From assembly GCA_965219415.1 (NCBI GenBank), contig CBDCNP010000002.1, positions 4,672,001 through 4,736,000 on the forward strand: 64,000 bases of DNA, in the 5' to 3' direction. The position numbers and the translations under genes are program-made. Under the pieces are notes generated by a model. It saw nothing but the letters and a program-made list of their open reading frames with translations. It was not told the origin of the DNA and searched no databases. Shown here piece after piece: positions 4,751-49,500 of this stretch; within the stretch, counting starts at the first letter, position 1; each line of letters begins with the position of its first letter. Origin of the DNA: Candidatus Marinacidobacterales bacterium. Its GTDB lineage: Bacteria; Acidobacteriota; Vicinamibacteria; Marinacidobacterales; DATDRI01.

Positions 4751-4916
4751 GGTGCTTGCGCTGTTTGCTGTTGGTGATGTGTACGTATCCCTTTGCAAAA
4801 AAAGCGCTTACGCTCCATTTAGCGCGCGGCGAAGGTCGTGAGCGCTATTTTGGCTGTAATTTAATGCAGCGTAAAGTCTTAGCGTCATCTCACCAACACT
4901 TAATGGCGGAAGCACC
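4751..4916. mobile_element. 166-bp MITE (family A), copy 2
   Basis: Same TIRs and length as 119-284. Confidence 0.9.
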
Positions 4917-10135: not shown

Positions 10136-10301
10136 GGTGCTTCCGCTGTTTACTGTTGGTGATGTGTACGCATCTCTTTGCAAAAGGGGCACTTACGCTC
10201 CATTTAGCGCGCGGCGAAGGTCACAAGCGCTATTCTGACTGTAACTTAATACACCGTAAAGTCTTAGCGTCATCTCACCAACACTTGATGGCGGAAGCAC
10301 C
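10136..10301. mobile_element. 166-bp MITE (family A), copy 3
   Basis: Same TIRs and length. Confidence 0.9.
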
Positions 10302-13853: not shown

Positions 13854-14061
13854 TGTGCATCGTCAAAACTGCTCCGCCCACGAAATCAAGGACTTACGCT
13901 CCGCTTGAATTCCGGGCCGAAGACGGCGAAACTCCGCCGCTATGCTCAACGTTGTTGTCTTCTTCGTCTCACTTGGCGTCCGTGCCATTCGGGCGATGTG
14001 TCGGCGCCGCGCCGACCTGGTGTTGGAGAACGTCGCTTTGCGGCAGCAAGTGACGGCGCTG
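13854..14061 (+). mobile_element. Left end of integrase element D, truncated by IS1-like element
   Basis: Near-identical to 36664-36870. Confidence 0.9.
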
Positions 14062-14170
14062 GGTGCTTCCGCAATTAAGTGTTGGCGGCCAGCCCCTAAC
14101 CGGTCTGCGTGCTAGAGTTTGAACCAGAATTCCGAAGACACAGTTCTCTCATCGTCAGGGCCGAGCCAAA

Positions 14171-15238
14171 GTGAAGAATCGCAGATGTCTCAATCTCGCA
14201 TGTCCGTTGCGGGGCAAAGTCAGTTCCGGAAACATCGTTCGCCACGGATTCTACCGAACCAGGTCCGGGAAACGCCGTCGATACCGGTGCGGCGAGTGTG
14301 GAAAGACGTTCTCTTCGACGAAAGGCACGCCCTACTACCGTCTCCAACATCGAAGAGCTACTTTCGAAGGGGTCATCGCTCTCAGAGTCGAGGGTGTCAG
14401 CATTTCCGCGATTTCCCGGATCAAAGGGATTGCCTGGAACACCGTCGCCCGCTGGCTCGAGAAGGCAGCCCAAGTGTGTCGTCGATTCAATCACAGAAGG
14501 ATCGCTGGCTTCGCCGCCGAAGAGCTTCAAGCCGACGAGATTCGCACGTTCGCGGGCAACAAGAAGACACCGAGTTGGGTCTTCGTTACGATCGAGGTCT
14601 GGTCTCGGCTCTGGCCATCGACGGCGACGGGAAGGCGAAGCTACCGGAACACTCACGCTCTGTTTCGCGACCTTTCGAGACGGATGAATTTCGAGCGTCT
14701 TCCCTTGATCGTCACGGATGGATTCGAATTCTACCAGAAAGTCATCCGTCGCTTCTTCGGTCCGGCGTGTCTCTACGGCCAGGTCCTAAAAACGCGCAGG
14801 AACGATTGCATCATCAAGGTCGAACGGAGAGCGCTGCACGGAGCCGCGTGGCGATTCGAAGACGCGCTCAATAACTCCGAGGACTCTTCGACATTGAACA
14901 CGTCGTTCATCGAGCGGTTGAATCTGACCATCCGGCAAAGCTCGGCATACCTTTCGAGACGAACGCTTTCCCACGCTCGCTCGACGGAGAGGCTCGATGA
15001 GCACCTGGAGTTGCTCCGTTGCTATTACAACTTCGTCCGACCGCACGGAGCTCTGAAGTTCGGACGTGAGATCCGAACTCCGGCTATGCAGGCTGGTCTG
15101 ACGACGCGACGGCTCACCTTTCGAGACATCTTCTTGGCGACGACGATTCCTTTGTGGTCGCGGATCGAGGTTTTCCTGCTCAGTAGGGCGCGCAACCCGG
15201 TCTCTTCCGCACCTGTACCACTGCCCGCAGCCGCGTAG
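14171..15238 (+). CDS. IS1-family transposase
   Basis: Zn finger CLNLAC..CGEC, HTH, DDE motifs QADE / VTDG / IERLN. Confidence 0.9.
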   Translation: MKNRRCLNLACPLRGKVSSGNIVRHGFYRTRSGKRRRYRCGECGKTFSSTKGTPYYRLQHRRATFEGVIALRVEGVSISAISRIKGIAWNTVARWLEKAAQVCRRFNHRRIAGFAAEELQADEIRTFAGNKKTPSWVFVTIEVWSRLWPSTATGRRSYRNTHALFRDLSRRMNFERLPLIVTDGFEFYQKVIRRFFGPACLYGQVLKTRRNDCIIKVERRALHGAAWRFEDALNNSEDSSTLNTSFIERLNLTIRQSSAYLSRRTLSHARSTERLDEHLELLRCYYNFVRPHGALKFGREIRTPAMQAGLTTRRLTFRDIFLATTIPLWSRIEVFLLSRARNPVSSAPVPLPAAA

Positions 15239-15344
15239 CAACATATCTGGACTCCTCTAGTCAAGCCCCTTTCTTTCTAGTCACGCCCCTTTCTTAATAA
15301 ATCTTCCATCGAAGCTGCGCATCCATCGCGTCGTGACGAGTGGG

Positions 15345-15520
15345 TCAGACTGCAAACGTATCTTCGGCCTCAGTGAGGAGCGTCTTGGGTGCTCCGGGCC
15401 ATGATGGAAAATCCGCGCGCGAGGAGCCAATCACTTTGAACGACCTCTTAGGGCCAGTGTTGCTATTGGCTTGACCCCGCGCCGGTCCGACCGGTACGCC
15501 ATCAGTTGGATGGGTATCGT
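15345..15520 (-). ncRNA. Predicted bridge/seek RNA of the IS1111 element (ends approximate)
   Basis: Contains segments matching the target (TAGCAACACT, AAGTG) and the donor junction (TTCCATCAT, AGATACG) in two stem-closed loops. Confidence 0.8.
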
Positions 15521-15573
15521 CGCAGCCTCTTTTGGAAGGGAAAAAGGAAAACACGAAAGTGGAGCCTCTAAAT

Positions 15574-16605
15574 CTAAGCGGCCACCGGCGACTGGAATTC
15601 ACTCTCGCGGGTGGAGACGGCCCAGACGATCCGGGCGAGTTTGTTGGCGACAGCAATCACGGCCTTGTTGTGTCCCCGCGAGCGGTGGACCTTCCGAGCC
15701 CAGGCGCGGAGCTTGTCGGGCGGGCTCTTGCTGACGTTCGCCGCGCGGAGCACGGCGCGCCCGCCCTGGGTGAGGAGCATACGGAGGTAGGAGTCGCCAC
15801 GCTTGGTGATGCGTCCGAGGCGGCGAATGTCGCCACTGGAGTTTTCCTTGGGAACTAGGCCGAGGTAGCTCGAGAAGCGGCGCCCCGATGGGAAGCGGCG
15901 AAGATCGCCGACGAAGCCCACGATGGCGGTCGCGGCCAGAAGTCCGATGCCGGGAATGGCGAGAAGTCGTTGGACTTCAGGAAGCTGCTTGGTGAGCGCC
16001 TTGAGCTCGTGCTCGATGCTAGCGCACTTGTCCTTGAGTTCTCGAATCTCGGAGCAGGCATCACGGAGATGCGAACGGAGCACGTCGGGCAAATCAGAAT
16101 CAGCGTCTTCGACGAGTTCGAAGAGGGCGGGCACGACGAAGTGAGCGCCCTTTGGGATGATGAATCCGAGTTCGCGCAGGAGCCCGCGTACGGCATTGAT
16201 GCGTGCGGTCCGTGTGGAGAGCCATCCTGAGCGCAGGCGATGGAGCGCAGCGAGGGTGTGCTGGTGCACGGACTTGATGGGTACGGGAAGAAGCTCCTCG
16301 TTCCTGTAGGCCTCGAGCAACGCCTTCGTGTCGGCGCGGTCGTTCTTGCTCCCGCGTCGATACGGCCTCACGAGGTGAGGTGGGAGCAGGACGACGTCGT
16401 GTCCCAACCTTCGGAACGTCCTTGCCCAGAAGTGAGCCGAGCCGCAGGCTTCGAGAAGCACGGTGGCAGCGCTCTGTTTGGCAAAGAACGACACCAATTT
16501 GGGTCGACTCACACGGAGTTGCTTGGACACCTTCCCCGCTTCTCCCGAGATGGCAATCTCGAAGACGTTCTTTGCAAGATCCACAGCGATTGTCGTATCT
16601 TTCAT
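15574..16605 (-). CDS. IS110-family (IS1111) recombinase
   Basis: DEDD motifs AVDLAK, LEACG, KNDRAD; C-terminal ENSSG serine; RBS AGGAGG before ATG 16605. Confidence 0.95.
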   Translation of the reverse strand: MKDTTIAVDLAKNVFEIAISGEAGKVSKQLRVSRPKLVSFFAKQSAATVLLEACGSAHFWARTFRRLGHDVVLLPPHLVRPYRRGSKNDRADTKALLEAYRNEELLPVPIKSVHQHTLAALHRLRSGWLSTRTARINAVRGLLRELGFIIPKGAHFVVPALFELVEDADSDLPDVLRSHLRDACSEIRELKDKCASIEHELKALTKQLPEVQRLLAIPGIGLLAATAIVGFVGDLRRFPSGRRFSSYLGLVPKENSSGDIRRLGRITKRGDSYLRMLLTQGGRAVLRAANVSKSPPDKLRAWARKVHRSRGHNKAVIAVANKLARIVWAVSTRESEFQSPVAA

Positions 16606-16706
16606 TCGGACTCCTCCTTTTCGATGCGTATTCGACTGACTTTGGCACATCGATGCCGTCTATGTCAGTGGAGGAGTCCATTCCATCACTTGATGGCGGA
16701 AGCACC

Positions 16707-17784
16707 GTCGCCTGGGTTTGCGGCCTGGGGCGCCGATCGGGCGGCGCCTGCCGGCGACTGTGGAAGTGGAACGCCGTTCTCTGCGCGCCTATGCGGAGCT
16801 GGTGCGATGACGGCGTCGACAGTGGAGCGGCGCGACCGGCTACGGGGGATGCTGGCGGATTTGAAGATGCCGGGTGCGCTTGAGGCAGTCGACGGCATCC
16901 TGGCGCAGGTCGACACCGGGGCCGTGACCGCCGGCGAGGCAATCGAGCAGTTGTTGACGGCACAGATCCTGCTCCGCAACAACCGCCGTCTACAGACGGC
17001 CATGCGCGCCTCGCGGCTGCCGGCCGTGAAGACGCTGGCGCAGTTCGACTTCACCTTCCAGCCCAGTATCAAGCGGGAGCAGATCGAGAGCCTGCACGAG
17101 CTCGGTTTCCTCGAGCGTGCCGAGAACGTCATCCTGCTAGGGCCGCCCGGCGTGGGCAAGACGCACCTGGCCATCAGCCTGGCCGTTGCGGCCGCCGAGG
17201 CGGGCCGCCGCGTCTACTACGGCACGTTAGCCGGGTTGATCGACTCGCTCACCGAAGCCAAGGCGGCGGGCAACCTCTCCCGGCGCCTGCGAGTGTTGAC
17301 ACATCCGGCGCTGCTCGTGGTGGACGAGATCGGCTACCTCCCGGTCAGCCAGGAGGGCGCCGTATTGTTCTTCCAGTTGACCAACGCCCGGCACGAACGG
17401 GCCTCGACAGTGCTGACCTCGAACAAGGGCTTCGAGGAGTGGGGGCACGTGCTCGGCGACGAGGTAATGGCGGCGGCTCTCATCGACCGCCTGCTGCACC
17501 ATTGCCATATCGTCAACATCCGGGGCAACAGCTACCGGATGCGAGAACACCGGAATCTGCTGCGAGCCACCTCCGACAAGACTGCCGAGCGTGTGGTGGG
17601 GTGAACTCGGTCCATGGGAACCGACCGATGCGTTTGGTGCCGGTCTCCGGTCGTTCCGCTCCATGCGTCCAGCACCAAACGCGGAACGGCGACTCCGACG
17701 CGGACCTCGGCGCCGCTCCGGACCGTTAGAAAAGTGTGCGGTTTCCGGTTGTCTAAAGTGTGCAGTTTTCGGTTGTCATTGACA
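16707..17784 (+). mobile_element. IS21-family 3' half (istA tail, istB, right end)
   Basis: istA tail VEVERRSLRAYAEL; tandem AAAGTGTGC repeats ending TTGACA at 17784. Confidence 0.85.
16807..17604 (+). CDS. istB: IS21 helper ATPase IstB
   Basis: GPPGVGKT, LVVDEIGY, TSNK, IDRLLHH, GNSYR. Confidence 0.95.
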   Translation: MTASTVERRDRLRGMLADLKMPGALEAVDGILAQVDTGAVTAGEAIEQLLTAQILLRNNRRLQTAMRASRLPAVKTLAQFDFTFQPSIKREQIESLHELGFLERAENVILLGPPGVGKTHLAISLAVAAAEAGRRVYYGTLAGLIDSLTEAKAAGNLSRRLRVLTHPALLVVDEIGYLPVSQEGAVLFFQLTNARHERASTVLTSNKGFEEWGHVLGDEVMAAALIDRLLHHCHIVNIRGNSYRMREHRNLLRATSDKTAERVVG

Positions 17785-17824
17785 ACGACGAGGTGATCGT
17801 GCCATGGAAAGCTTAACTAGGCAT

Positions 17825-17864
17825 TGACCTGACCCCACGGTTAGTACCACGTGGGGTCGGGTCA
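17825..17864. repeat. 40-bp palindrome made of two IS3-like ends
   Basis: TGACCTGACCCCACG...CGTGGGGTCGGGTCA; same end recurs near 42719. Confidence 0.6.
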
Positions 17865-17981
17865 CCCTTCCCCGAAGGTTTCGAACTGGTCGCGACTAGT
17901 ATTCGTCACAGTCGGAGCGGGTTCGATATGCGACCTGATTCAAGCGTGTCAGCCAACCGATACAGGTCGCACGGGTGCATC

Positions 17982-18074
17982 CCGTCCTGTGCCAAAACTC
18001 GGATCTTTCGAAATAGACCATAAATCAGCAGCTTAGCAAGTTCGGTGCGCGCGGATGAATAAATAGAAGGCACA
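17982..18074. mobile_element. B-C mini-element (93 bp)
   Basis: B end CCGTCCTGTGCCAAAACTC joined to inverted C end AATAAATAGAAGGCACA. Confidence 0.8.
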
Positions 18075-23972: not shown

Positions 23973-24138
23973 GGTGCTTCCGCCATTAAGTGTTGGTGAG
24001 ATGACGCTAAGATTTTATGCTGCATTAAATTACAGCCAAAATAGCGCTCACGTCCTTTGCCTGGAGCTAAATGGAGCGTAAGCGCTTTTTTTATAACGGG
24101 ATACGTACACATTACCAACAGCAAACAGCGCAAGCACC
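23973..24138. mobile_element. 166-bp MITE (family A), copy 4, inverted
   Basis: Same TIRs and length. Confidence 0.9.
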
Positions 24139-24689
24139 CACGGACCTCGGGACACATCCCCTAGCAACACTCGATGACGGAAGCACCTTTGCGGACCACA
24201 AGCAGCTGATCACTCGTCAACCCCCATCTGGATCTCACCATTCCTGAGATAGGAAGAAACGGTCACGGACGGCAACCCACCGCACTGACTAGCATGCAGG
24301 GCTACGTGGGTGTATCGTGTGGGGCCCATCGCGAATCTGAATGTAAAGTAACGTGACTGTGATCCGGCAACACAAATCGGTAGTCTCGTCCGTTGCGGCC
24401 GTTATTGCCGTCATCTGTCACCCGGGAATTCTCTGGGCCCAGAATTGTGTCGACCTTTCGCCCCGTGTCGAGGTCAGCCAGCAAAGGCTTGCGGTCAAGT
24501 TGTCTGGAAGTTGGGAGTTCTTCACTCCCGAGTCTCCAGAGAGGAAAGTAGCCCTCCGACTATGCTTACTGCATCGGCGAATGGTATGCCGCGCGGAGAG
24601 CTGACAGAGGCCAGAGCGTGGCTGTGCGACACGCCGGTCCACATGACTTTTTACGACGGTGAGCGATCTCAGGGTCTTCGAAAACCAAA

Positions 24690-25892: not shown

Positions 25893-26398
25893 GTTTGTAT
25901 CACTGGCAGGAACGCTGGCCATCCGAGGAGGCCAATCACTTTAACCCCGCCTATTGCGGTGTGCTCATTTACGAGTTCGTCCGCGCTTATGAAAGGGCGA
26001 AAAGAGTATCGCCGTCATTCGCGCTTTTGTATTGTGCCCTCCCCATTTCGCTTCACCCTGCCACCCGCGATCGCCTACCGAAATCCACCGTCACCGGCCT
26101 ATTTCCCTGGCTTGAAAATAATCGGGATGTCCGAGTGGGTTTTGCTGATCGAGCGCGCAACCTCACCCCCTATGTTCGGGAAGCGTTTCGGTACGCGGCA
26201 GCACGCAGTGCAATTCGTTTTGCTGATGGCGGGGTGGTTACCATCGGGCCCAAACGGGCCTCTTTTACACAATCGGAACTCGATAAGGCTACTACTGATG
26301 TTCGCGATACCGTCGACGCCATTCGCAAGGTGGCCCGGTGGTTCGCCGCAGCAGGGGACACGCCAACAATTCTTGCCGCATGGGGTATACGCGTATGA
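25889..26398 (+). CDS. lmuC: ABC-3C middle component
   Basis: FNPAYCG..LPISLH..R..LP; overlaps both neighbours by 4 nt. Confidence 0.75.
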   Translation: MSLYHWQERWPSEEANHFNPAYCGVLIYEFVRAYERAKRVSPSFALLYCALPISLHPATRDRLPKSTVTGLFPWLENNRDVRVGFADRARNLTPYVREAFRYAAARSAIRFADGGVVTIGPKRASFTQSELDKATTDVRDTVDAIRKVARWFAAAGDTPTILAAWGIRV

Positions 26399-28332
26399 GT
26401 TTCACACTTCGGTCCATTAGCATCTACAGTACGCGTGGCGCGTGCCGCACGGTTAAATTCCGCCAGTCAGGCCTAAACATACTCACTGGACGAGCCAAGA
26501 CCGGCAAGTCAGCGATCATAGATATTCTCGACTATTGCTTCGGCCGTTCAGAGTGCTATGTCGCCGAAGGTGTCATTCGACAGCACGTGTCATGGTTCGG
26601 GGTGGAGATTGAGAATGGCGAGGATGTTCTTTTTGTTGGTCGACGCAATCCAGGTGAGAGCAGGCGCACCAGTCAAGACATCCATATTCGTCGCGGGCGG
26701 CACGATAGTCTGCCGAAATATGCCGACCTGCACAAGAACATCACCGAAGAGGCACTGATCCGCCTACTGACCCGCTTCACGGGGATCGCCGAGAACGAAA
26801 ATCAACCGCTCACAGGGATTCGGAGGCCGTTGCAAGCCACTATCCGACACGCTCTCTTTTTTTGCTTCCAGAAGCAGGACGAGATCGCGAGTCGAGATCG
26901 GCTTTTCCATCGGCAGGGAGATCAATTTATTCCGCAGGCAATCAAAGATACAATCCCCTACTTTCTCGGCGCTGTTGATGAAGACCATTTTCTTCGACAA
27001 AACGAACTGGACGACGCTAAGCTGTCACTGCAACAGCTCGAAGCGCGTCGTAATGTCATGCAGAGTAACGACGATACCCAAACAGGAATCAGGCGCCTTT
27101 TTCTAGATGCACGCCGCGTTGGCCTTGTCGATGAGGGTTTTGAAACTACTGAGATAGAACTAGCACTACAAGAGTTGAGGCGTGTTCTGGCGATGGATCT
27201 TCAATCTCCAACCATTGTCTCTGGTGCCAGTGATGTGATCGTTAGGCTTGAGAACGAGCTCCGCACGCTTCATCAGCAGTTGGAAGATGTTCAAAACGAC
27301 ATTCGGGCAACCCAGCATTTTTTGCGAGAACAAACCAGCTATTCGAGGGAAGTGAATGAACAACGCGCGCGTCTTGTTTCACTTGACCTCTATACGGGTG
27401 TGTCAGATGTAGACAATGTCTGCCCGCTTTGCGAAGCACATCTCGAGACGCCGACACCAGCGGCATCAGATCTTTCCAGCTCTCTTCGGGCCCTTAATGT
27501 GCAGTTGGACGCTGTTAGCGCGGAACGTCCGCACCTTCAGAAGCGCTTAGATGAGTTTAGCAGGAAACGCACAGAGATTGAGAGAGCGATTGTCGCGACA
27601 CAGCGTGATCTCGAACGCGCCTATAGGGATGATGAAAGGGCACGTCAGCAACGCGATGAAGTCATCGAGCGAGCGCGTGTTGTCGGAAGAATCGGCGCAT
27701 TTCTGGACCGAACGAGTTTGTCGGACGAAAAAGAAGATCTTGATAAACGCATCGATGAAGCCCGGCGGCGGGTGGAGGTTCTCGCTGAGCGTGTGAGTGC
27801 AGACGACATAGATGAAAGAGTATATACCTTCCTCAATCTAATCGCGGACCATATGACGGGCTATGCTACCGATCTTGACCTGGAACATGCTGAAGGACGT
27901 ATACGGCTTGATTTGAAAAAACTTTCTGTCGTGGCTGAAACGGTTACGGGCCCGATTCCCCTTAACCGGATTGGTAGCGGAGAGAACTGGGTTGGGTATC
28001 ATGTGGTCACTTTATTGGCGCTCCATCGTTGGTTCAGAGAACAGAACCGTCCAGTACCCGGAATTCTCGTGTTCGATCAACCGTCTCAGGCACATTATCC
28101 ACCTGATTTGGATCAACACGGCAGAATTGACGTGCTCCAGGATGCAGACCGTCGGGCTGTACACAATCTTTTTGAACTCATGCACTCGGCAAGCCAAGAA
28201 ATAGGCGAGGGCTTTCAGCTTATCGTTCTCGACCATGCCCATCTTGATGATGATTGGTTTAATGCGAACATCGTTGAGGAATGGCGCGGTGACTCAGGGC
28301 TCGTACCGGTTGAGTGGAGGACGACGTCGTGA
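26395..28332 (+). CDS. lmuB: SMC-like ABC ATPase (DUF3732)
   Basis: Walker A GRAKTGKS, coiled coil with CPLC hook, GSGEN, LVFDQP, LDH. Confidence 0.85.
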   Translation: MSFTLRSISIYSTRGACRTVKFRQSGLNILTGRAKTGKSAIIDILDYCFGRSECYVAEGVIRQHVSWFGVEIENGEDVLFVGRRNPGESRRTSQDIHIRRGRHDSLPKYADLHKNITEEALIRLLTRFTGIAENENQPLTGIRRPLQATIRHALFFCFQKQDEIASRDRLFHRQGDQFIPQAIKDTIPYFLGAVDEDHFLRQNELDDAKLSLQQLEARRNVMQSNDDTQTGIRRLFLDARRVGLVDEGFETTEIELALQELRRVLAMDLQSPTIVSGASDVIVRLENELRTLHQQLEDVQNDIRATQHFLREQTSYSREVNEQRARLVSLDLYTGVSDVDNVCPLCEAHLETPTPAASDLSSSLRALNVQLDAVSAERPHLQKRLDEFSRKRTEIERAIVATQRDLERAYRDDERARQQRDEVIERARVVGRIGAFLDRTSLSDEKEDLDKRIDEARRRVEVLAERVSADDIDERVYTFLNLIADHMTGYATDLDLEHAEGRIRLDLKKLSVVAETVTGPIPLNRIGSGENWVGYHVVTLLALHRWFREQNRPVPGILVFDQPSQAHYPPDLDQHGRIDVLQDADRRAVHNLFELMHSASQEIGEGFQLIVLDHAHLDDDWFNANIVEEWRGDSGLVPVEWRTTS

Positions 28333-28996: not shown

Positions 28997-29080
28997 GCTT
29001 GGCGTTTAGGAACATCTTGGTGTGCACGCCGACACAGGTAGTCCAACTGACACTAGCATTCAAACGCGACGTAGCAACAC

Positions 29081-32000
29081 TTGATGGGGCGGAAGCACGA
29101 GCCATCGAGAAAGAAAAATGGAAAATTTGAGGCGTTCGCACAATTGCAACTGACAGCAGCAGTCGAGACCTACTTCACCGAGCTTCGGCGGATGCGCGCG
29201 TCGGGTGGTGGGACCGGAGAGCGGTCGAGCTATCCGGCGCTGGCGAACCTGCTCAATACCGTCGGTGCGACTCTCAGGCCGAAGGTGTTTTGCGTTAGCG
29301 AGCTTGCGGAGCAGGGAGCGGGTCATCCCGACTTCGGCCTCTACGCGGCGAAGCAAGTGCAGAAGGGCCGGCTGCGCGAGGGACAGATACCGGCCCGCGG
29401 CGTGGTCGAGGTGAAGGGCGTCGAAGATGATGCGTGGCTGACCGCAGACGGCGAGCAGGTAAGCCGCTACTGGAGTCGCTACCAGCTGGTGCTGGTGACG
29501 AATACGCGCGACTTCGTGCTAGTGGGCATGGATGCGGCGGGCCGTCCTTCGAAGCTGGAAACGTTCCGGCTGGCTGACAGTGCCGAGGCGTTCGACCGCC
29601 GTCTTGAGAAGCCGCGGGCCTTTGCTCACGACGTGGGTGCGGGTCTGGGCGAGTACCTTAGTCGAGTACTGTCGCATCGTGCGGCGCTCGCCGAGCCGAA
29701 GGACTTGGCATGGCTGCTCGCGTCCTATGCCCGCGACGGGCTCGCGCGTGTCGAAGCCGCGGGCGATACAGCGTCGCTCAAGGCGGTCCGCTCGGCGCTC
29801 GAAGAAGCACTCGGGGTGCGCTTCGAGGGCGAAAAGGGTGCTCGCTTCTTCCACTCGACCCTGGTGCAGACGCTGTTCTATGGCGTCTTCTCCGCCTGGG
29901 TGCTGTGGGCGCGGCAGACGCCACCGCCGAGCGCCAAGTTTAACTGGCATGATGCAGTCTGGCATTTGCGTGCGCCAGTCCTTCGGGCGCTATTCCAGCA
30001 GCTCTCCGACCCCGGCCGCCTGCAACCGCTCGGCCTGGTCGAGGTGCTGGACTGGACTTCTGCCGCGCTTGACCGGGTAGACCGGTCGTCGTTCTTCACC
30101 CGCTTTAGGGAAGGCGAAGCGGTGCCTTATTTCTACGAACCGTTCCTGGAATCCTTCGACCCTCATCTGCGTAAGCAGTTAGGGGTTTGGTACACGCCGA
30201 TCGAGGTGGTGCGCTACATGGTTGCTCGCGTGGACAAGGCGCTCAAGGATGATCTCGACATTCCAGACGGGCTCGCGGCAGAGAATGTCTATGTGCTCGA
30301 CCCGTGTTGTGGAACCGGAGCCTATCTCACCGAAGTGCTGCGCCGCATCGCGGCCAATCTAGAGAGAAGGGGCCTGGGTGCGCTCACGGGCGCGCGGGTC
30401 AAACAGGCTGCAATGGAGCGTGTGTTCGGTTTCGAGATCATGCCCGCACCGTTCGTCGTCTCCCATCTACAGGTCGGGATTACCATGCAAGACCTCGACG
30501 CGCCGCTGGCGGAGGACGGAGTGGAGCGCCCTGGCGTCTTCCTCACCAATGCGCTTACCGGGTGGGAGCCGAAAACGACGAAACCACTGCCTTTCCCTGA
30601 ACTGGAGGAAGAGCGCGACCGTGCGGAGCGGGTGAAGCAAGAGACACCCATCCTCGTGATCCTTGGCAACCCGCCCTACAACGGCTTCGCCGGTATGGCC
30701 GTGGAGGAAGAACGTGAACTTTCCGAAGCCTACCGCACGACCAAGCGCGTGCGGCGGCCCGAGGGCCAAGGCTTGAACGATCTGTATGTCCGTTTCTTTC
30801 GCATGGCGGAACGGCGCATCGTCGAGAAGACGGGCCGGGGCGTCGTCTGCTTCATCTCCAACTACTCCTGGCTCGACGGGCTGTCCTTCACGGGGATGCG
30901 GGAGCGTTACCTTGAAGCGTTCGACGCGGTCCGCGTAGACAATCTGAATGGCGACAAGTACAAGACAGGCAAGGTCGCGCCCGACGGCACATCGGACCCC
31001 AGCATTTTCTCGACGCCGGGCGATCCGGTCGGTATCCAGGTCGGAACCGCCATCACGACACTTGTGCGCAAAGCCGACCATGCTCAGGCCGGGGAAGTCG
31101 GTTTTCGCCATCTGTGGGGACAAGCCAAGTGCGCAGAACTGATGGCCACGGCGGAGGAGGCACCGGATACGCTTTACGAAGGCGTCGAGCCGGTCCTGCC
31201 GCTCGGCTTGCCGTTCGTGCAGACAGAGGTGAGCGAGGGTTGGTTTGACTGGGCGGCGCTACCCGACCTGTTCCCAGCGTCGTTTCCTGGCGTCAAGACA
31301 AGCCGCGACGGATTTCTCGTCGACGTCGATCTGGACCGGCTCAAGGCGCGGATCGCCGATTACTTCAATACAGATGTGAGTCATGAAGAGATTGCACGCC
31401 GCTATCCGGGCGTGATGAAGACCACGGCGCGGTTTGATGCCCGAGCAATCCGCGATGCGCTGGTCGCGCGCGGCGGGCCGACCGAAGGCGGTTTCGTCCG
31501 TTTCACCTACCGGCCTTTCGACAATCGCTGGCTCTATTGGGAGGGGGATGGTGGCCTGCTCGATCGTCCACGTCCCGACTACCGGCCCCATGTGTTCGAG
31601 GGAAATCGGTGGCTGGTCGCGCAGCAGAAACCGCGTAGGGAATGGTCGCCTCCACAGGTGATTTCGCATATCGGTTGTCTCGATCTCATGGACAGGGGCG
31701 CGACTTGCATTCCGGTGAGGCTCCGTGAAGACGGTATAGGGAATGATGGCGATGGCGTGCGCCGCCCCAACATATCAGCAACTGTTCAGCGCTATCTCGA
31801 CCGTCTCGGCATGGGTGTGGAAGACCTGTTCCATCACGTCCTGGCCGTGCTGCACGATCCTGCATACCGCAAGGCGAACGCCGGGGCACTGCGCATGGAA
31901 TGGCCGCGCATTCCGCTACCAGGTTGGCCGGACGGTGCGGCAGAGGGCGCGGCGGAGGTGCTCGCCGCGTCAGCGGTGCAGGGTCGGGACCTCGCCCGGC

Positions 32001-32461
32001 TGCTCGATCCGGAGACGCCCGTCCCGGGTGTCACGCAAGGCGCATTGCGGCCGGAGATTGTCGCAATCGCCGTACCCACAACGACGGACGGACACAACAT
32101 GACCGGCGACGATTTTTCGGTGACGGCAGGATGGGGACACTTCGGAATTGGCGACGCCGTGATGCCTGGCCAAGGCCGGGTTGTCGAGCGTCCCTACACG
32201 CCGGAGGAGCTGGTCGCTTTGGGCGAGACAGTTGCCACCCTTGGTGAGACGACGTTCGACGTGTATCTCAATGCCCGCGCCTTCTGGCGTAACATCCCTG
32301 CTTCCGTCTGGCGCTACAAACTGGGCGGCTACCAGGTTCTCAAGAAATGGCTCTCCTACCGTGAGCGCTCTATTCTCAACCGCCCGCTCAAACCCGAGGA
32401 AATCCAGCATTTTGCTGACACCGGTCGGCGGATTTCGACGATGGCGCTTACCCGCGTTTAA
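29081..32461 (+). CDS. Single-polypeptide RM enzyme (nuclease + N6 MTase + type ISP-like TRD, no helicase); true start probably slightly downstream
   Basis: GHPDFG..VEVK, WYTP, LDPCCGTG, GNPPY, YRPFD, LGGYQVLKKWL. Confidence 0.85.
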   Translation: MMGRKHEPSRKKNGKFEAFAQLQLTAAVETYFTELRRMRASGGGTGERSSYPALANLLNTVGATLRPKVFCVSELAEQGAGHPDFGLYAAKQVQKGRLREGQIPARGVVEVKGVEDDAWLTADGEQVSRYWSRYQLVLVTNTRDFVLVGMDAAGRPSKLETFRLADSAEAFDRRLEKPRAFAHDVGAGLGEYLSRVLSHRAALAEPKDLAWLLASYARDGLARVEAAGDTASLKAVRSALEEALGVRFEGEKGARFFHSTLVQTLFYGVFSAWVLWARQTPPPSAKFNWHDAVWHLRAPVLRALFQQLSDPGRLQPLGLVEVLDWTSAALDRVDRSSFFTRFREGEAVPYFYEPFLESFDPHLRKQLGVWYTPIEVVRYMVARVDKALKDDLDIPDGLAAENVYVLDPCCGTGAYLTEVLRRIAANLERRGLGALTGARVKQAAMERVFGFEIMPAPFVVSHLQVGITMQDLDAPLAEDGVERPGVFLTNALTGWEPKTTKPLPFPELEEERDRAERVKQETPILVILGNPPYNGFAGMAVEEERELSEAYRTTKRVRRPEGQGLNDLYVRFFRMAERRIVEKTGRGVVCFISNYSWLDGLSFTGMRERYLEAFDAVRVDNLNGDKYKTGKVAPDGTSDPSIFSTPGDPVGIQVGTAITTLVRKADHAQAGEVGFRHLWGQAKCAELMATAEEAPDTLYEGVEPVLPLGLPFVQTEVSEGWFDWAALPDLFPASFPGVKTSRDGFLVDVDLDRLKARIADYFNTDVSHEEIARRYPGVMKTTARFDARAIRDALVARGGPTEGGFVRFTYRPFDNRWLYWEGDGGLLDRPRPDYRPHVFEGNRWLVAQQKPRREWSPPQVISHIGCLDLMDRGATCIPVRLREDGIGNDGDGVRRPNISATVQRYLDRLGMGVEDLFHHVLAVLHDPAYRKANAGALRMEWPRIPLPGWPDGAAEGAAEVLAASAVQGRDLARLLDPETPVPGVTQGALRPEIVAIAVPTTTDGHNMTGDDFSVTAGWGHFGIGDAVMPGQGRVVERPYTPEELVALGETVATLGETTFDVYLNARAFWRNIPASVWRYKLGGYQVLKKWLSYRERSILNRPLKPEEIQHFADTGRRISTMALTRV

Positions 32462-43612: not shown

Positions 43613-43778
43613 GGTGCTTGCGCTGTTTGCTGTTGGTGATGTGTACGTATCCCTTTGCAAAAAAAGCGCTTATGCTTCATTTAGCGCGCGGCGAAGGTCG
43701 TGAGCGCTATTTGGGCTGTAATTTAATGCAGCGTAAAGTCTTAGCGTCATCTCACCAACACTTAATAGCGGAAGCACC
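43613..43778. mobile_element. 166-bp MITE (family A), copy 5
   Basis: Same TIRs and length. Confidence 0.9.
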
Positions 43779-45140: not shown

Positions 45141-45306
45141 GGTGCTTGCGCTGTTTACTGTTGGTGATGTGTACGCATCCCTTTGCAAAAGAGGCGCTTA
45201 CGCTCCATTTGGCGCGCAGCGAAGGTCACGAGCGCTATTTTGGCTGTAATTTAATGTACCCTAAAGTCTTAGCGTTATCTCACCAACACTTAATGGCGGA
45301 AGCACC
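45141..45306. mobile_element. 166-bp MITE (family A), copy 6
   Basis: Same TIRs and length. Confidence 0.9.
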
Positions 45307-47818: not shown

Positions 47819-49023
47819 GGCTTGACTAGAGGAGTCCAGATATGTTGCTACGCGGCTACGGGCAGTGGTTCAGGTGCGGAAGAGACCGGGTTGCGCGCCC
47901 CAGTGAGCAGGAAAACCTCGATCCGGAACCACAAAGGAATTGTCGTCGCCAAGAAGATGTCTCGAAAGGTGAGCCGTCGCGTGGTCAGACCGGCTTGCAT
48001 GGCGGGAGTTCGGATCTCACGTCCGAACTTCAGAGCTCCGTGCGGTCGGACGAAGTTGTAATAGCAACGGAGCAACTCCAGGTGCTCATCGAGCCTCTCC
48101 GTCGAGCGAGCGTGGGAAAGCGTTCGTCTCGAAAGGTATGCCGAGCTTCGCCGGATGGTCAGATTTAACCGCTCGATGAACGACGTGTTCAATGTCGAGG
48201 AGTCCTCGGAGTTATTGAGCGTGTCTTCGAATCGCCGCGGCTCCGTGCAGCGCTCTGCGTTCGACCTTGATGATACGATTGTTCCTGCGCGTTTTGAGGA
48301 CCTGGCCGTAGAGACACGCTGGCCCGAAGAAGCGACGGATGACCTTCTGGTAGAATTCGAATCCATCCGTGACGATCAGGGGAAGACGCTCGAAATTCAT
48401 CCGTCTCGAAAGGTCGCGAAACAGAGCGTGAGTGTTCCGGTAGCTTCGCCTTCCCGTCACCGTCGATGGCCAGAGCCGAGACCAGACTTCGATTGTAACG
48501 AAGACCCAACTCGGTGTCTTCTTGTTGCCCGCGAACGTGCGAATCTCGTCGGCTTGAAGCTCTTCGGCAGCGAAGCCAGCGATCCTTCTGTGATTGAATC
48601 GACGACACACTTGGGCTGCCTTCTCGAGCCAGCGGGCGACGGTGTTCCAGGCAATCCCTTTGATCCGGGAAATCGAGGAAATGCTGACACCCTCGACTCT
48701 GAGAGCGATGACCCCATCGAAAGTAGCTCTTCGATGTTGGAGACGGTAGTAGGGCGTGCCTTTCGTCGAGGAGAACGTCTTTCCGCACTCGCCGCACCGG
48801 TATCGACGGCGTTTCCCGGACCTGGTTCGGTAGAATCCGTGGCGAACGATGTTTCCCGGAACTGACTTTGCCCCGCAACGGACATGCGAGATTGAGACAT
48901 CCGCGATTCTTCACTTCGGCTCGGCCCTGACGATGAGAGAACTGTGTCTTCGGAATTCTGGTTCAAACTCTAGCACGCAGACCGGTTAGGGGCTGGCCGC
49001 CAACACTTAATTGCGGAAGCACC
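47819..49023 (-). mobile_element. Frameshifted IS1-family copy with IS1111 right-end remnant (47819-47842) at the same TIR position
   Basis: Inverted homologue of about 14062-15268. Confidence 0.88.
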
Positions 49024-49500
49024 CCAACACCAACTCGAAATGACCTTCGAGCACATGCCACACCGGCTTCCAATACACTCCGGTCGCTTCCATCGCTACA
49101 ATCGTGCAACCGCTCTGCCCCAGCCAATCCGCCATTTCCAGCAATTCGCTCGTGGCTGTACCGAACACACGCGTCTCGCGTACCACCTTCCGCTTCAACG
49201 CAACCCGCACGCAAGCCGTAATCGATTTCTGGTGGACGTCCAATCCGGCGCATCGCTTATGAACCACTCTCATCGCAGCCTCCTTCACGTCGCACCGGCG
49301 TGGAGCCCACGAACTTGTAATCTAATAGACGCGCTCAACAATCCCAGCTGGATAGAAAACGCAATTTGGGGTACGCGCAGGACTCCCAGCCAAACTTGAC
49401 AACGGGCTCAGTCGCACCAACGTTGAGCCGACCTCTGAGCCGGTGCCACCTACAGAGACTACCGCGTTTCATTCATTCGGGGTGGCCGTCAGGCCGTGAA
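49024..49500 (-). mobile_element. IS110 remnant: left non-coding end plus recombinase N-terminus
   Basis: CAGLDVHQK..VAMEATGVYWKP, cut by the IS1 end; upstream non-coding region carries a 10-nt match to its flank. Confidence 0.85.

Follow-up and report, generated by a model that had tools for sequence, protein, structure and literature searches.

The 64,000-nucleotide stretch of DNA analyzed here (the window), from a Candidatus Marinacidobacterales bacterium, carries an insertion sequence (IS) of the IS1111 type, a member of the IS110 family, at positions 15242-16688 on the minus strand, within an IS1-like element whose right terminal repeat it splits. With a probability of about 0.9, we read it as an RNA-guided element of the IS1111 group, active or recently active, whose recombinase would be directed by a predicted bridge (seek) RNA from its 3′ non-coding region. 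In the mechanism we propose, an RNA of about 190 nt would fold as a three-way junction and present a target-binding arm and a donor-guide arm. The 5′ strand of the target loop, UAGCAACACU, would pair with one DNA strand and the 3′ strand, AAGUG, with the other, and the donor guides would recognize the IS ends as they are joined in a circular intermediate (AGATA-TG-ATGGAA). Recombination across the TG common to donor and target would then insert the element in one orientation, 20 bp inside the IS1-like right repeat, and would do the same in every MITE (a miniature transposable element with inverted repeats) or fragment bearing this repeat. The anatomy of the element, its site specificity, a conserved and covarying RNA fold and the covariation between guides and flanks were observed directly.

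The boundaries of the element were set by 27 occupied and 79 empty perfect genomic sites, together with the empty site at 29072. At the left junction, TAGCAA (15236-15241) is followed by CA (15242-15243) and then TATCT, and at the right junction TTCCAT runs up to 16686 and is followed by CA (16687-16688), then CTTGATGG and GCGGAAGCACC to 16706. CA, which is TG in the transposase sense, stands at both junctions, and with one copy counted to the element its length is 1445 bp, the interior (15244-16686) being 1443 nt. The reconstructed empty site is TAGCAA-CA-CTTGATGG. We found a single target and a single orientation with no target duplication, only the CA/TG dinucleotide being present at both junctions. 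The coordinates and motifs given in an initial annotation of this DNA were all present in the window sequence. It had also named two empty sites, of which the one at 29072-29087 (plus strand, in the end of a MITE-type, class B repeat) holds the exact, uninterrupted 16-mer (16/16), whereas the one at 24162 is imperfect, with 2 mismatches.

Inside the junctions, the ends carry repeats of the kind described for the IS1111 group. Subterminal inverted repeats were read from the sequence at 16671-16679 (GAGGAGTCC on the plus strand; the left end in the transposase sense, with the motif kept in relatives) and at 15249-15257 (GGACTCCTC on the plus strand; the right end). They match over 9 perfect bp, or 10 with a flanking T, which is inside the range of 7-17 bp given in PMC11208160 and below the 11-13 bp given in PMC11187229. 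Outside them lie terminal extensions, ATTCCAT at the left end (16680-16686, 7 nt, ATGGAAT in the transposase sense) and TATCT at the right end (15244-15248, 5 nt, AGATA in the transposase sense). The gene is followed by a long non-coding region of 331 nt (15244-15573) and preceded by 36 nt up to the first ATG, or 81 nt up to the likely start. We assign the element to the IS1111 group because the domains of its protein, its subterminal repeats and its downstream non-coding region are the hallmarks of that group (PMC11187229, PMC11208160).

The sole long open reading frame (ORF) of the element encodes a DEDD/serine transposase at 15574-16650 on the minus strand, with 358 residues from the first ATG. 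Translation likely begins at M16 (ATG at 16605-16603, behind AAGGAGG), giving 343 residues, since homology begins near residue 16-20 and the AAGGAGG is a ribosome-binding site. The DEDD, RuvC-like domain PF01548 was found at residues 22-161 (E = 7.8e-12) and PF02371 at residues 227-305 (E = 3.4e-24), and the NCBIfam model NF033542, "IS110 family RNA-guided transposase", scored 302.6 bits (cut-off 140). In its C-terminal domain the protein can be aligned to IS621 (8wt6) and ISCro4 (9t56), including the serine motif GL.P....SG, of which GLVPKENSSG is the copy in this transposase. Pfam, NCBIfam and the alignment with these two recombinases thus agree with the earlier proposal that the element is an intact IS110-family member of the IS1111 type. 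The sole common variant of the full copies in the genome, C16607T, falls in the gap that separates the ribosome-binding site from the ATG, 2 nt upstream of the likely start.

The predicted RNA lies downstream of the transposase gene, as the initial annotation had it, and its fold is conserved and covarying. The non-coding region folds with a z-score of -3.39 relative to shuffles, and its central 170 nt are 73-76% conserved in relatives whose transposase genes are about 65% identical in DNA. We aligned 17 diverse non-coding regions, in which RNAalifold recovered three stems, wrote a fuller structure by eye and built a covariance model of 190 positions (R1) on it. R1 gave 44 matches in 42 sources and scored 168.8 bits at the module in the window (15343-15535, minus strand). 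On an alignment fitted to the model, a fit that favors structure, pairing was found in 85.5% of cells compared with 31-41% when the 3′ partners were slid by 1-3 columns. Changes on both sides occurred in 28/39 base pairs, and the covariation score was 0.437 compared with 0.162 in shuffles, none of 500 reaching the observed value.

The overall fold is a three-way junction of a closing stem, a 5′ arm and a 3′ arm. The closing stem, recovered by RNAalifold, pairs GGCUGC (15522-15527, minus strand) with GCAGUC (15348-15353), and its helix 1 is 96.7% paired with covariation at 3/6 pairs. Along the 5′ arm lie a small hairpin, a long stem with covariation and the loop that binds the target (15425-15471, minus strand). 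That loop had been described as closed by GCCAAT/ATTGGC, and we find the stem as AGCCAAU/AUUGGCU (15465-15471 with 15425-15431; helices 4-6), enclosing both target guides and an inner hairpin at 15441-15455. In three genomic copies, A15443G strengthens this hairpin by converting a G.U pair to G:C. The 3′ arm is the donor arm (15366-15400, minus strand), in which a GGCC/GGCC stem (15397-15400 with 15366-15369) surrounds the hairpin CGGAGC..GCUCC; pairing reaches 92.4% in helix 7 and 83.4% in helix 8, with covariation at 3/5 and 4/5 pairs, respectively. The donor guides flank this arm, a layout that agrees with the statement that donor-binding bases of IS1111 elements often sit in a multi-loop (PMC11208160).

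Target, donor and both guide pairs can be read directly from the sequence. The 5′ target guide UAGCAACACU (DNA TAGCAACACT; 15456-15465, minus strand) is the complement of the transposase-sense top strand AGTGTTGCTA, spans the core and the right target arm, and matches the empty site at 10/10 positions. The 3′ target guide AAGUG (15432-15436, minus strand) has the same sense as the top strand over the left arm and core and pairs with the bottom strand, and a one-base bulge lengthens its match to UCAA(A)GUG. The two overlap by 4 nt on the target and together read 11 bases, AAG-TG-TTGCTA in the transposase sense. UAGCAACACU stands 5′ of AAGUG, following the IS1111 rule that the complement of the top strand precedes that of the bottom strand (PMC11187229). 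For the donor, the 5′ guide UUCCAUCAU (DNA TTCCATCAT; 15401-15409, minus strand) is the complement of the IS left end and core (A-TG-ATGGAA), matches the predicted circle junction at 9/9 positions and is conserved as UUCCAUCA in most relatives. The 3′ donor guide AGAUACG (15357-15363, minus strand) has the sense of the IS right end and core (AGATA-TG) and matches at 6/7. The guides are identical in all 31 genomic copies of the RNA region. When the 330-nt non-coding region was shuffled 5000 times with dinucleotides preserved, a match of at least 10 nt to the empty site arose in 13 shuffles and one of at least 9 nt to the circle junction in 56.

Across relatives, the columns of the target guides vary and the scaffold is otherwise conserved. 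Each 5′ target guide matched its own right junction better than those of other elements (self 5.91, non-self 3.75), as did the 3′ target guide with left junctions (3.97 and 3.02) and the 3′ donor guide with the tail of the right end (6.23 of 7 and 4.82); in all three comparisons, 0/10000 permutations scored as high. The loop segments that had been named as guides occupy variable positions, and both target guides and the 3′ donor guide track the flanks or the right end in relatives.

The genome itself provides a second body of evidence. We surveyed 8.05 Mb in 3 contigs (59% G+C), in which blastn with the element returned 36 high-scoring segment pairs, 25 of them full length and 99.4-100% identical. 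About 30 near-identical copies are present, all at the same position and in the same orientation. The left junction reads ...AACA in 25/25 full-length copies, and in all 33 copies that keep the right end it is followed by CACTTGATGGCGGAAGCACC with at most one change, beyond which the DNA differs. Listing the flanks of all copies, as the initial annotation had suggested, placed every full copy at the same point of the same terminal repeat in several unrelated hosts, a MITE among them. Within the window, the target 16-mer occurs 11 times with up to 3 mismatches, against 0.22 expected.

We then scored each of the 510 repeat-like ends in the genome (at most 4 substitutions from the outer repeat) over the 11 guide-covered bases, and removed 3 truncated occupied ends to leave 507. 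Ends perfect in these bases were occupied in 27/106 cases and imperfect ends in 2/401, with no occupancy among the 43 ends that have a single mismatch. Ends with a CACCAA arm and an otherwise perfect right arm (CTTGATGG) were also empty (0/27), as were, genome-wide, those that combine CACCAA with CTTAATGG (0/95). Ends with a TACCAA arm likewise never carry the element. Perfect and imperfect ends differ in occupancy with Fisher p = 6.9e-18 and an odds ratio of 68, a test that overstates independence, as the copies are related by descent. Of the two occupied imperfect ends, one is a chimeric site that has an arm of the left-repeat type, and the other is a copy nested in the non-coding region of another copy.

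A common site could also arise by descent, with one or a few entries followed by spread of the copies through transposition of their IS1-like or MITE hosts. All copies have the outer 20-bp repeat in common and many share inner host sequence, the outer 20 bp might still act as a transposon end, and two copies share the flank past the repeat, which points to segmental duplication. We consider this account improbable, because the occupied sites belong to at least three host classes that have only about 10 bp in common inside the junction. Perfect sites were occupied in 13/65 cases in the 1202-bp IS1-like class, 10/28 in a 246-bp MITE class, 2/6 in a third short class and 2/7 in other hosts. The element itself exists as two haplotypes (the reference in 16 and C16607T in 7 of the 23 copies classified), both of which are found in class A (IS1-like) and class B (MITE). 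On a tree of 29 full-length hosts, the 3 occupied ones required 3 changes, too few for a strong test. Related genomes, described below, have the same site as well as non-repeat look-alikes. Together, the host classes, haplotypes, tree and related genomes argue for repeated, sequence-directed insertion, and descent from few entries leaves aside that the site is predicted by the guide sequence itself. A further account, homologous recombination or gene conversion among repeats with the split repeat as homology arms, would have the 510 similar ends as partners and would fit the presence of rearranged, chimeric and nested copies. It is the least probable of the accounts considered, given that the outer homology is only 20 bp, the inner one about 10 bp between host classes, and that one-mismatch ends carry no copy.

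It is also conceivable that the recombinase or a host factor recognizes the repeat by protein contacts alone, with the RNA matches being coincidental or a by-product of a carried copy of the target. The subterminal repeats hint at some role of protein-DNA contacts in recognizing the ends, the 5′ donor guide is without a covariation signal, and the RNA was not detected here. We think recognition by protein alone very unlikely: both target guides and the 3′ donor guide vary among relatives and track their flanks, none of the 5000 shuffles contained both the target and the junction match, a close relative that differs mainly in its guides has another target (see below), and experiments on family members found the RNA to be required and programmable (PMC11187229, PMC11208160).

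The RNA-guided reading has to accommodate several points that weigh against it, beyond the shared descent of the copies and the model-fitted pair counts given above. The RNA, the circle junction and transposition are all predictions from sequence. A search of 14000-18000 with Rfam 15 gave 6 weak matches far below the gathering score, none of them within 15343-15535. The 3′ target guide is short, at 5 nt without its bulge. In the 3′ donor guide, the mismatch falls on the first core base, where the junction reads AGATATG; relatives at 93% protein identity carry a perfect AGAUAUG there. The 5′ donor guide gave no signal against the left end (self 5.26, non-self 5.27; 5683/10000 permutations as high), which we attribute partly to failed detection of the left end at several loci and partly to conservation of that end. 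Terminal extensions of the IS1111 group are described as asymmetric, 7 bp on the left and 3 bp on the right (PMC11187229); our left extension of 7 nt agrees, and the right one has 5 nt plus the ambiguous TG. Finally, attC-type relatives have TG at the left junction and other dinucleotides at the right junction, a comparison made on occupied sites with no empty ones. Mismatched bases beside the core are treated in PMC13626964 and may bear on crossover at attC-type sites, but that work concerns IS621.

Relatives of the element allowed us to ask where its specificity came from. The closest are in Candidatus Marinacidobacterales metagenome-assembled genomes (MAGs) at 98% and 93% protein identity, followed by other Acidobacteriota at 55-62% and by Proteobacteria and other phyla at about 40-50%. 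In the related MAG of the 98% class, the left-junction repeat is present at 16/16 loci and TTGCTA at the right junction in 14/16. Two loci of the 93% class, L048 in clearly non-repeat DNA and L047 in a possibly degenerate repeat, share (T)CAAG-TG-TTGCT, and several sites of this class match only in part. The relatives at 40-62% identity that we inspected have an imperfect palindrome on one side and a GTTRRRY-type motif on the other, and a RYYYAAC-type motif occurs upstream. We take this layout to be that of attC sites. The closest named transposase is that of ISPa25 (45.9% identity over 95% of the protein); in the plasmid examined, ISPa25 lies inside a class 1 integron cassette array, and R1 scored 95.4 bits over the full model on its 3′ non-coding region. 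ISPa25 is listed among attC-targeting elements (PMC11187229).

Locus L043 connects the two kinds of target. It comes from the same MAG as the 98% copies and has 93% protein identity; its RNA is identical to that in the window at 142/174 positions outside the target guides but only at 10/20 inside them. L043 is inserted in a different, attC-like site, which its own 5′ guide matches over 10 nt. From this we conclude that the lineage was naturally retargeted: both target guides were exchanged, and the preferred site changed from an attC-type one to the IS1-like repeat, analogous to the ISEc11/ISXne4 pair (PMC11187229).

In related MAGs, eight loci (L031, L039, L040, L044, L045, L050, L051 and L055) have 2-4 tandem or nested RNA modules within 1-1.5 kb downstream of one transposase gene. 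They may derive from nested insertions or from deletions, or be solo RNA modules comparable to the ssr9 copies of ISPpu9. In the genome under study, at C3:3315126-3316853, a 286-nt fragment of the right end and RNA (equivalent to 15243-15528 of the window) directly precedes a full copy. The joint is located within the closing stem of the RNA, in its 5′ half; the sequence there agrees with a normal left arm at 7/10 bases, and the arrangement may reflect self-targeting or rearrangement. We found no second IS1111-type family in this genome, the only other matches being two distant ones at 29-31% identity.

We speculate that insertion may immobilize the host element, its right repeat being split. 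Extending this, the element might act as an RNA-guided brake on another transposon. It would disable a quarter of the perfect IS1-like and MITE ends, leave untouched those ends whose guide-covered bases differ, namely the left repeat and most ends of the MITEs, and have a recent specificity, both target guides of an attC-seeking ancestor having been rewritten within about 7% protein divergence. As a whole this extension is tentative, and we hold it to be rather unlikely. If true, it would represent natural retargeting of a bridge RNA between classes of mobile DNA, with a measurable effect on the spread of a host family.

The element is clearly a new example of a known mechanism, and the mechanism itself is not new. 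What is new is the IS1-like/MITE host in an uncultured acidobacterium, the readable guides, the table of site occupancies and the evidence for recent retargeting. It is a well-resolved natural case for IS110/IS1111 elements, and with 106 perfect and 401 imperfect sites in one genome it provides a natural specificity data set. This makes it a convenient candidate for guide swaps, for measuring mismatch tolerance and for asking whether one transposon restrains another. A literature search, in which supplementary tables were outside the scope, returned no earlier report of this case and no papers on Marinacidobacterales.

Among known systems, the nearest in habit are IS4321 and IS5075 of the IS1111 family, which are reported (work by Partridge and Hall from 2003) to reside in Tn21-family transposons, inside their terminal inverted repeats. 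Like them, our element occupies one position in one orientation inside the terminal repeat of another transposon, as a parasite of a transposon family. The hosts differ, being of the Tn21 family (Tn3-type) in the one case and a 1.2-kb IS1-like element plus MITEs of an uncultured acidobacterium in the other. The likeness is one of insertion habit.

ISPa25, of the IS1111-attC group (with ISKpn4 and ISPst6; PMC11187229), has a homologous RNA module with the same guide layout. In contrast to that group, the target here is the terminal repeat of an IS and not an integron attC site, both target guides have been replaced, and the crossover TG is unambiguously common to donor and target. The bridge RNA of IS621 (PMC11208160, PMC11208158) likewise has a target and a donor loop that read both strands around a 2-nt core, and the recombinases share the DEDD plus serine organization with an alignable C-terminal domain. 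The differences are that our RNA lies 3′ of the gene and not 5′, that its top- and bottom-strand guides come in the opposite order, that the donor guides are in a multi-loop, that the subterminal repeats are long, and that protein similarity is about 35 bits and confined to the C-terminal domain. The founding IS1111 of Coxiella is similar in that 20/21 copies lie in MITE-borne sequence (QMITE2), but its target is a GTAG-type palindrome within the MITE rather than a terminal repeat, and the host family is another one (PMC5896051).

From the sequence we infer that the RNA would be transcribed and processed, that a circular intermediate would form, that its junction would carry a promoter, and that the mobility of the host would be affected. 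A promoter scan of 15150-16800 found no sigma-70-like promoter, and with no internal promoter found, the source of transcription stays a matter of inference. A -35-like TTGACT lies at 15259-15264 (minus strand), just inside the right-end repeat, and TTGAC(A/G/T) is present at the same place in relatives. By analogy with ISEc11 (PMC11187229), it could be half of a junction promoter formed on the circle.

We also searched RNA libraries from four runs of two studies (X1-X4), available as contigs, in which uncovered parts carry no meaning. X1, X2 and X4 contain pieces of the gene, contigs being no proof of transcription, ends or level. One X3 contig of 152 nt spans 15519-15670 with no differences. 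A contig in X2 matches 15345-15371 and 15475-15495 with 99 other letters between them, and probably represents a relative whose middle part is different. In X1, a contig has 15242 joined to 16687, which corresponds to the uninterrupted site.

The host of the element is split into an inner part at 14062-15243 (plus strand), with the left terminal repeat beginning at 14062, and the outer 20 bp of its right terminal repeat, CACTTGATGGCGGAAGCACC, at 16687-16706 (plus strand). The insertion point is 20 bp from the outer end of the right repeat and 4 bp past the stop of the host transposase ORF (14171-15238, plus strand, 355 residues), and the inner part of the repeat is now 1.45 kb from the severed outer part. 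The insertion spares this ORF, to which the element is convergent, and the guide-read arm TAGCAA begins with the three bases of the ORF's stop codon, TAG (15236-15238). Intact copies of the host elsewhere in the genome are 1202 bp long. The host had been assigned to the IS1 family. NF033558 (IS1 family) is indeed the best NCBIfam match of its transposase, but at 84.6 bits it is below the cut-off of 100, PF03400 reaches 20.6 bits against 24.1, and the IS1/IS1595 zinc-binding domain is also under its cut-off. With the best family match below curated cut-offs, we name the host IS1-like only.

The second IS1 copy that had been reported, with the same junction at 47843, does have that junction, of which only a remnant of the element remains: the last 25 or so nt of the IS right end, TG (47843-47844) and TTGCTAC, at 47819-47850 (plus strand). 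It belongs to a second, inverted IS1-like element at 47819-49024, in which the rest of the IS has been replaced by another repeat. The window also contains a 166-bp MITE family (119-284, 4751-4916, 10136-10301, 23973-24138, 43613-43778 and 45141-45306) whose ends are related to the terminal repeat of the IS1-like element but have CACCAA and CTTAATGG as their arms. Target duplications of 2-10 bp were absent in most of the 51 IS1-like and 246-bp MITE elements checked with ends as defined here, so insertions of the host family cannot be dated by them. Either the true ends of the family lie a few bases away, or its insertion produces no duplication.

Directly past the split repeat is an ORF for an IstB-like ATPase of the IS21 type (16807-17604; PF01695, 269 bits), which places the IS1-like element in or beside an IS21-type element. 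Around the empty site at 29072 are two large ORFs, 26338-28332 (664 residues) and 29081-32461 (1126 residues, with an NPPY-type methyltransferase motif), which may belong to a defense-type island.

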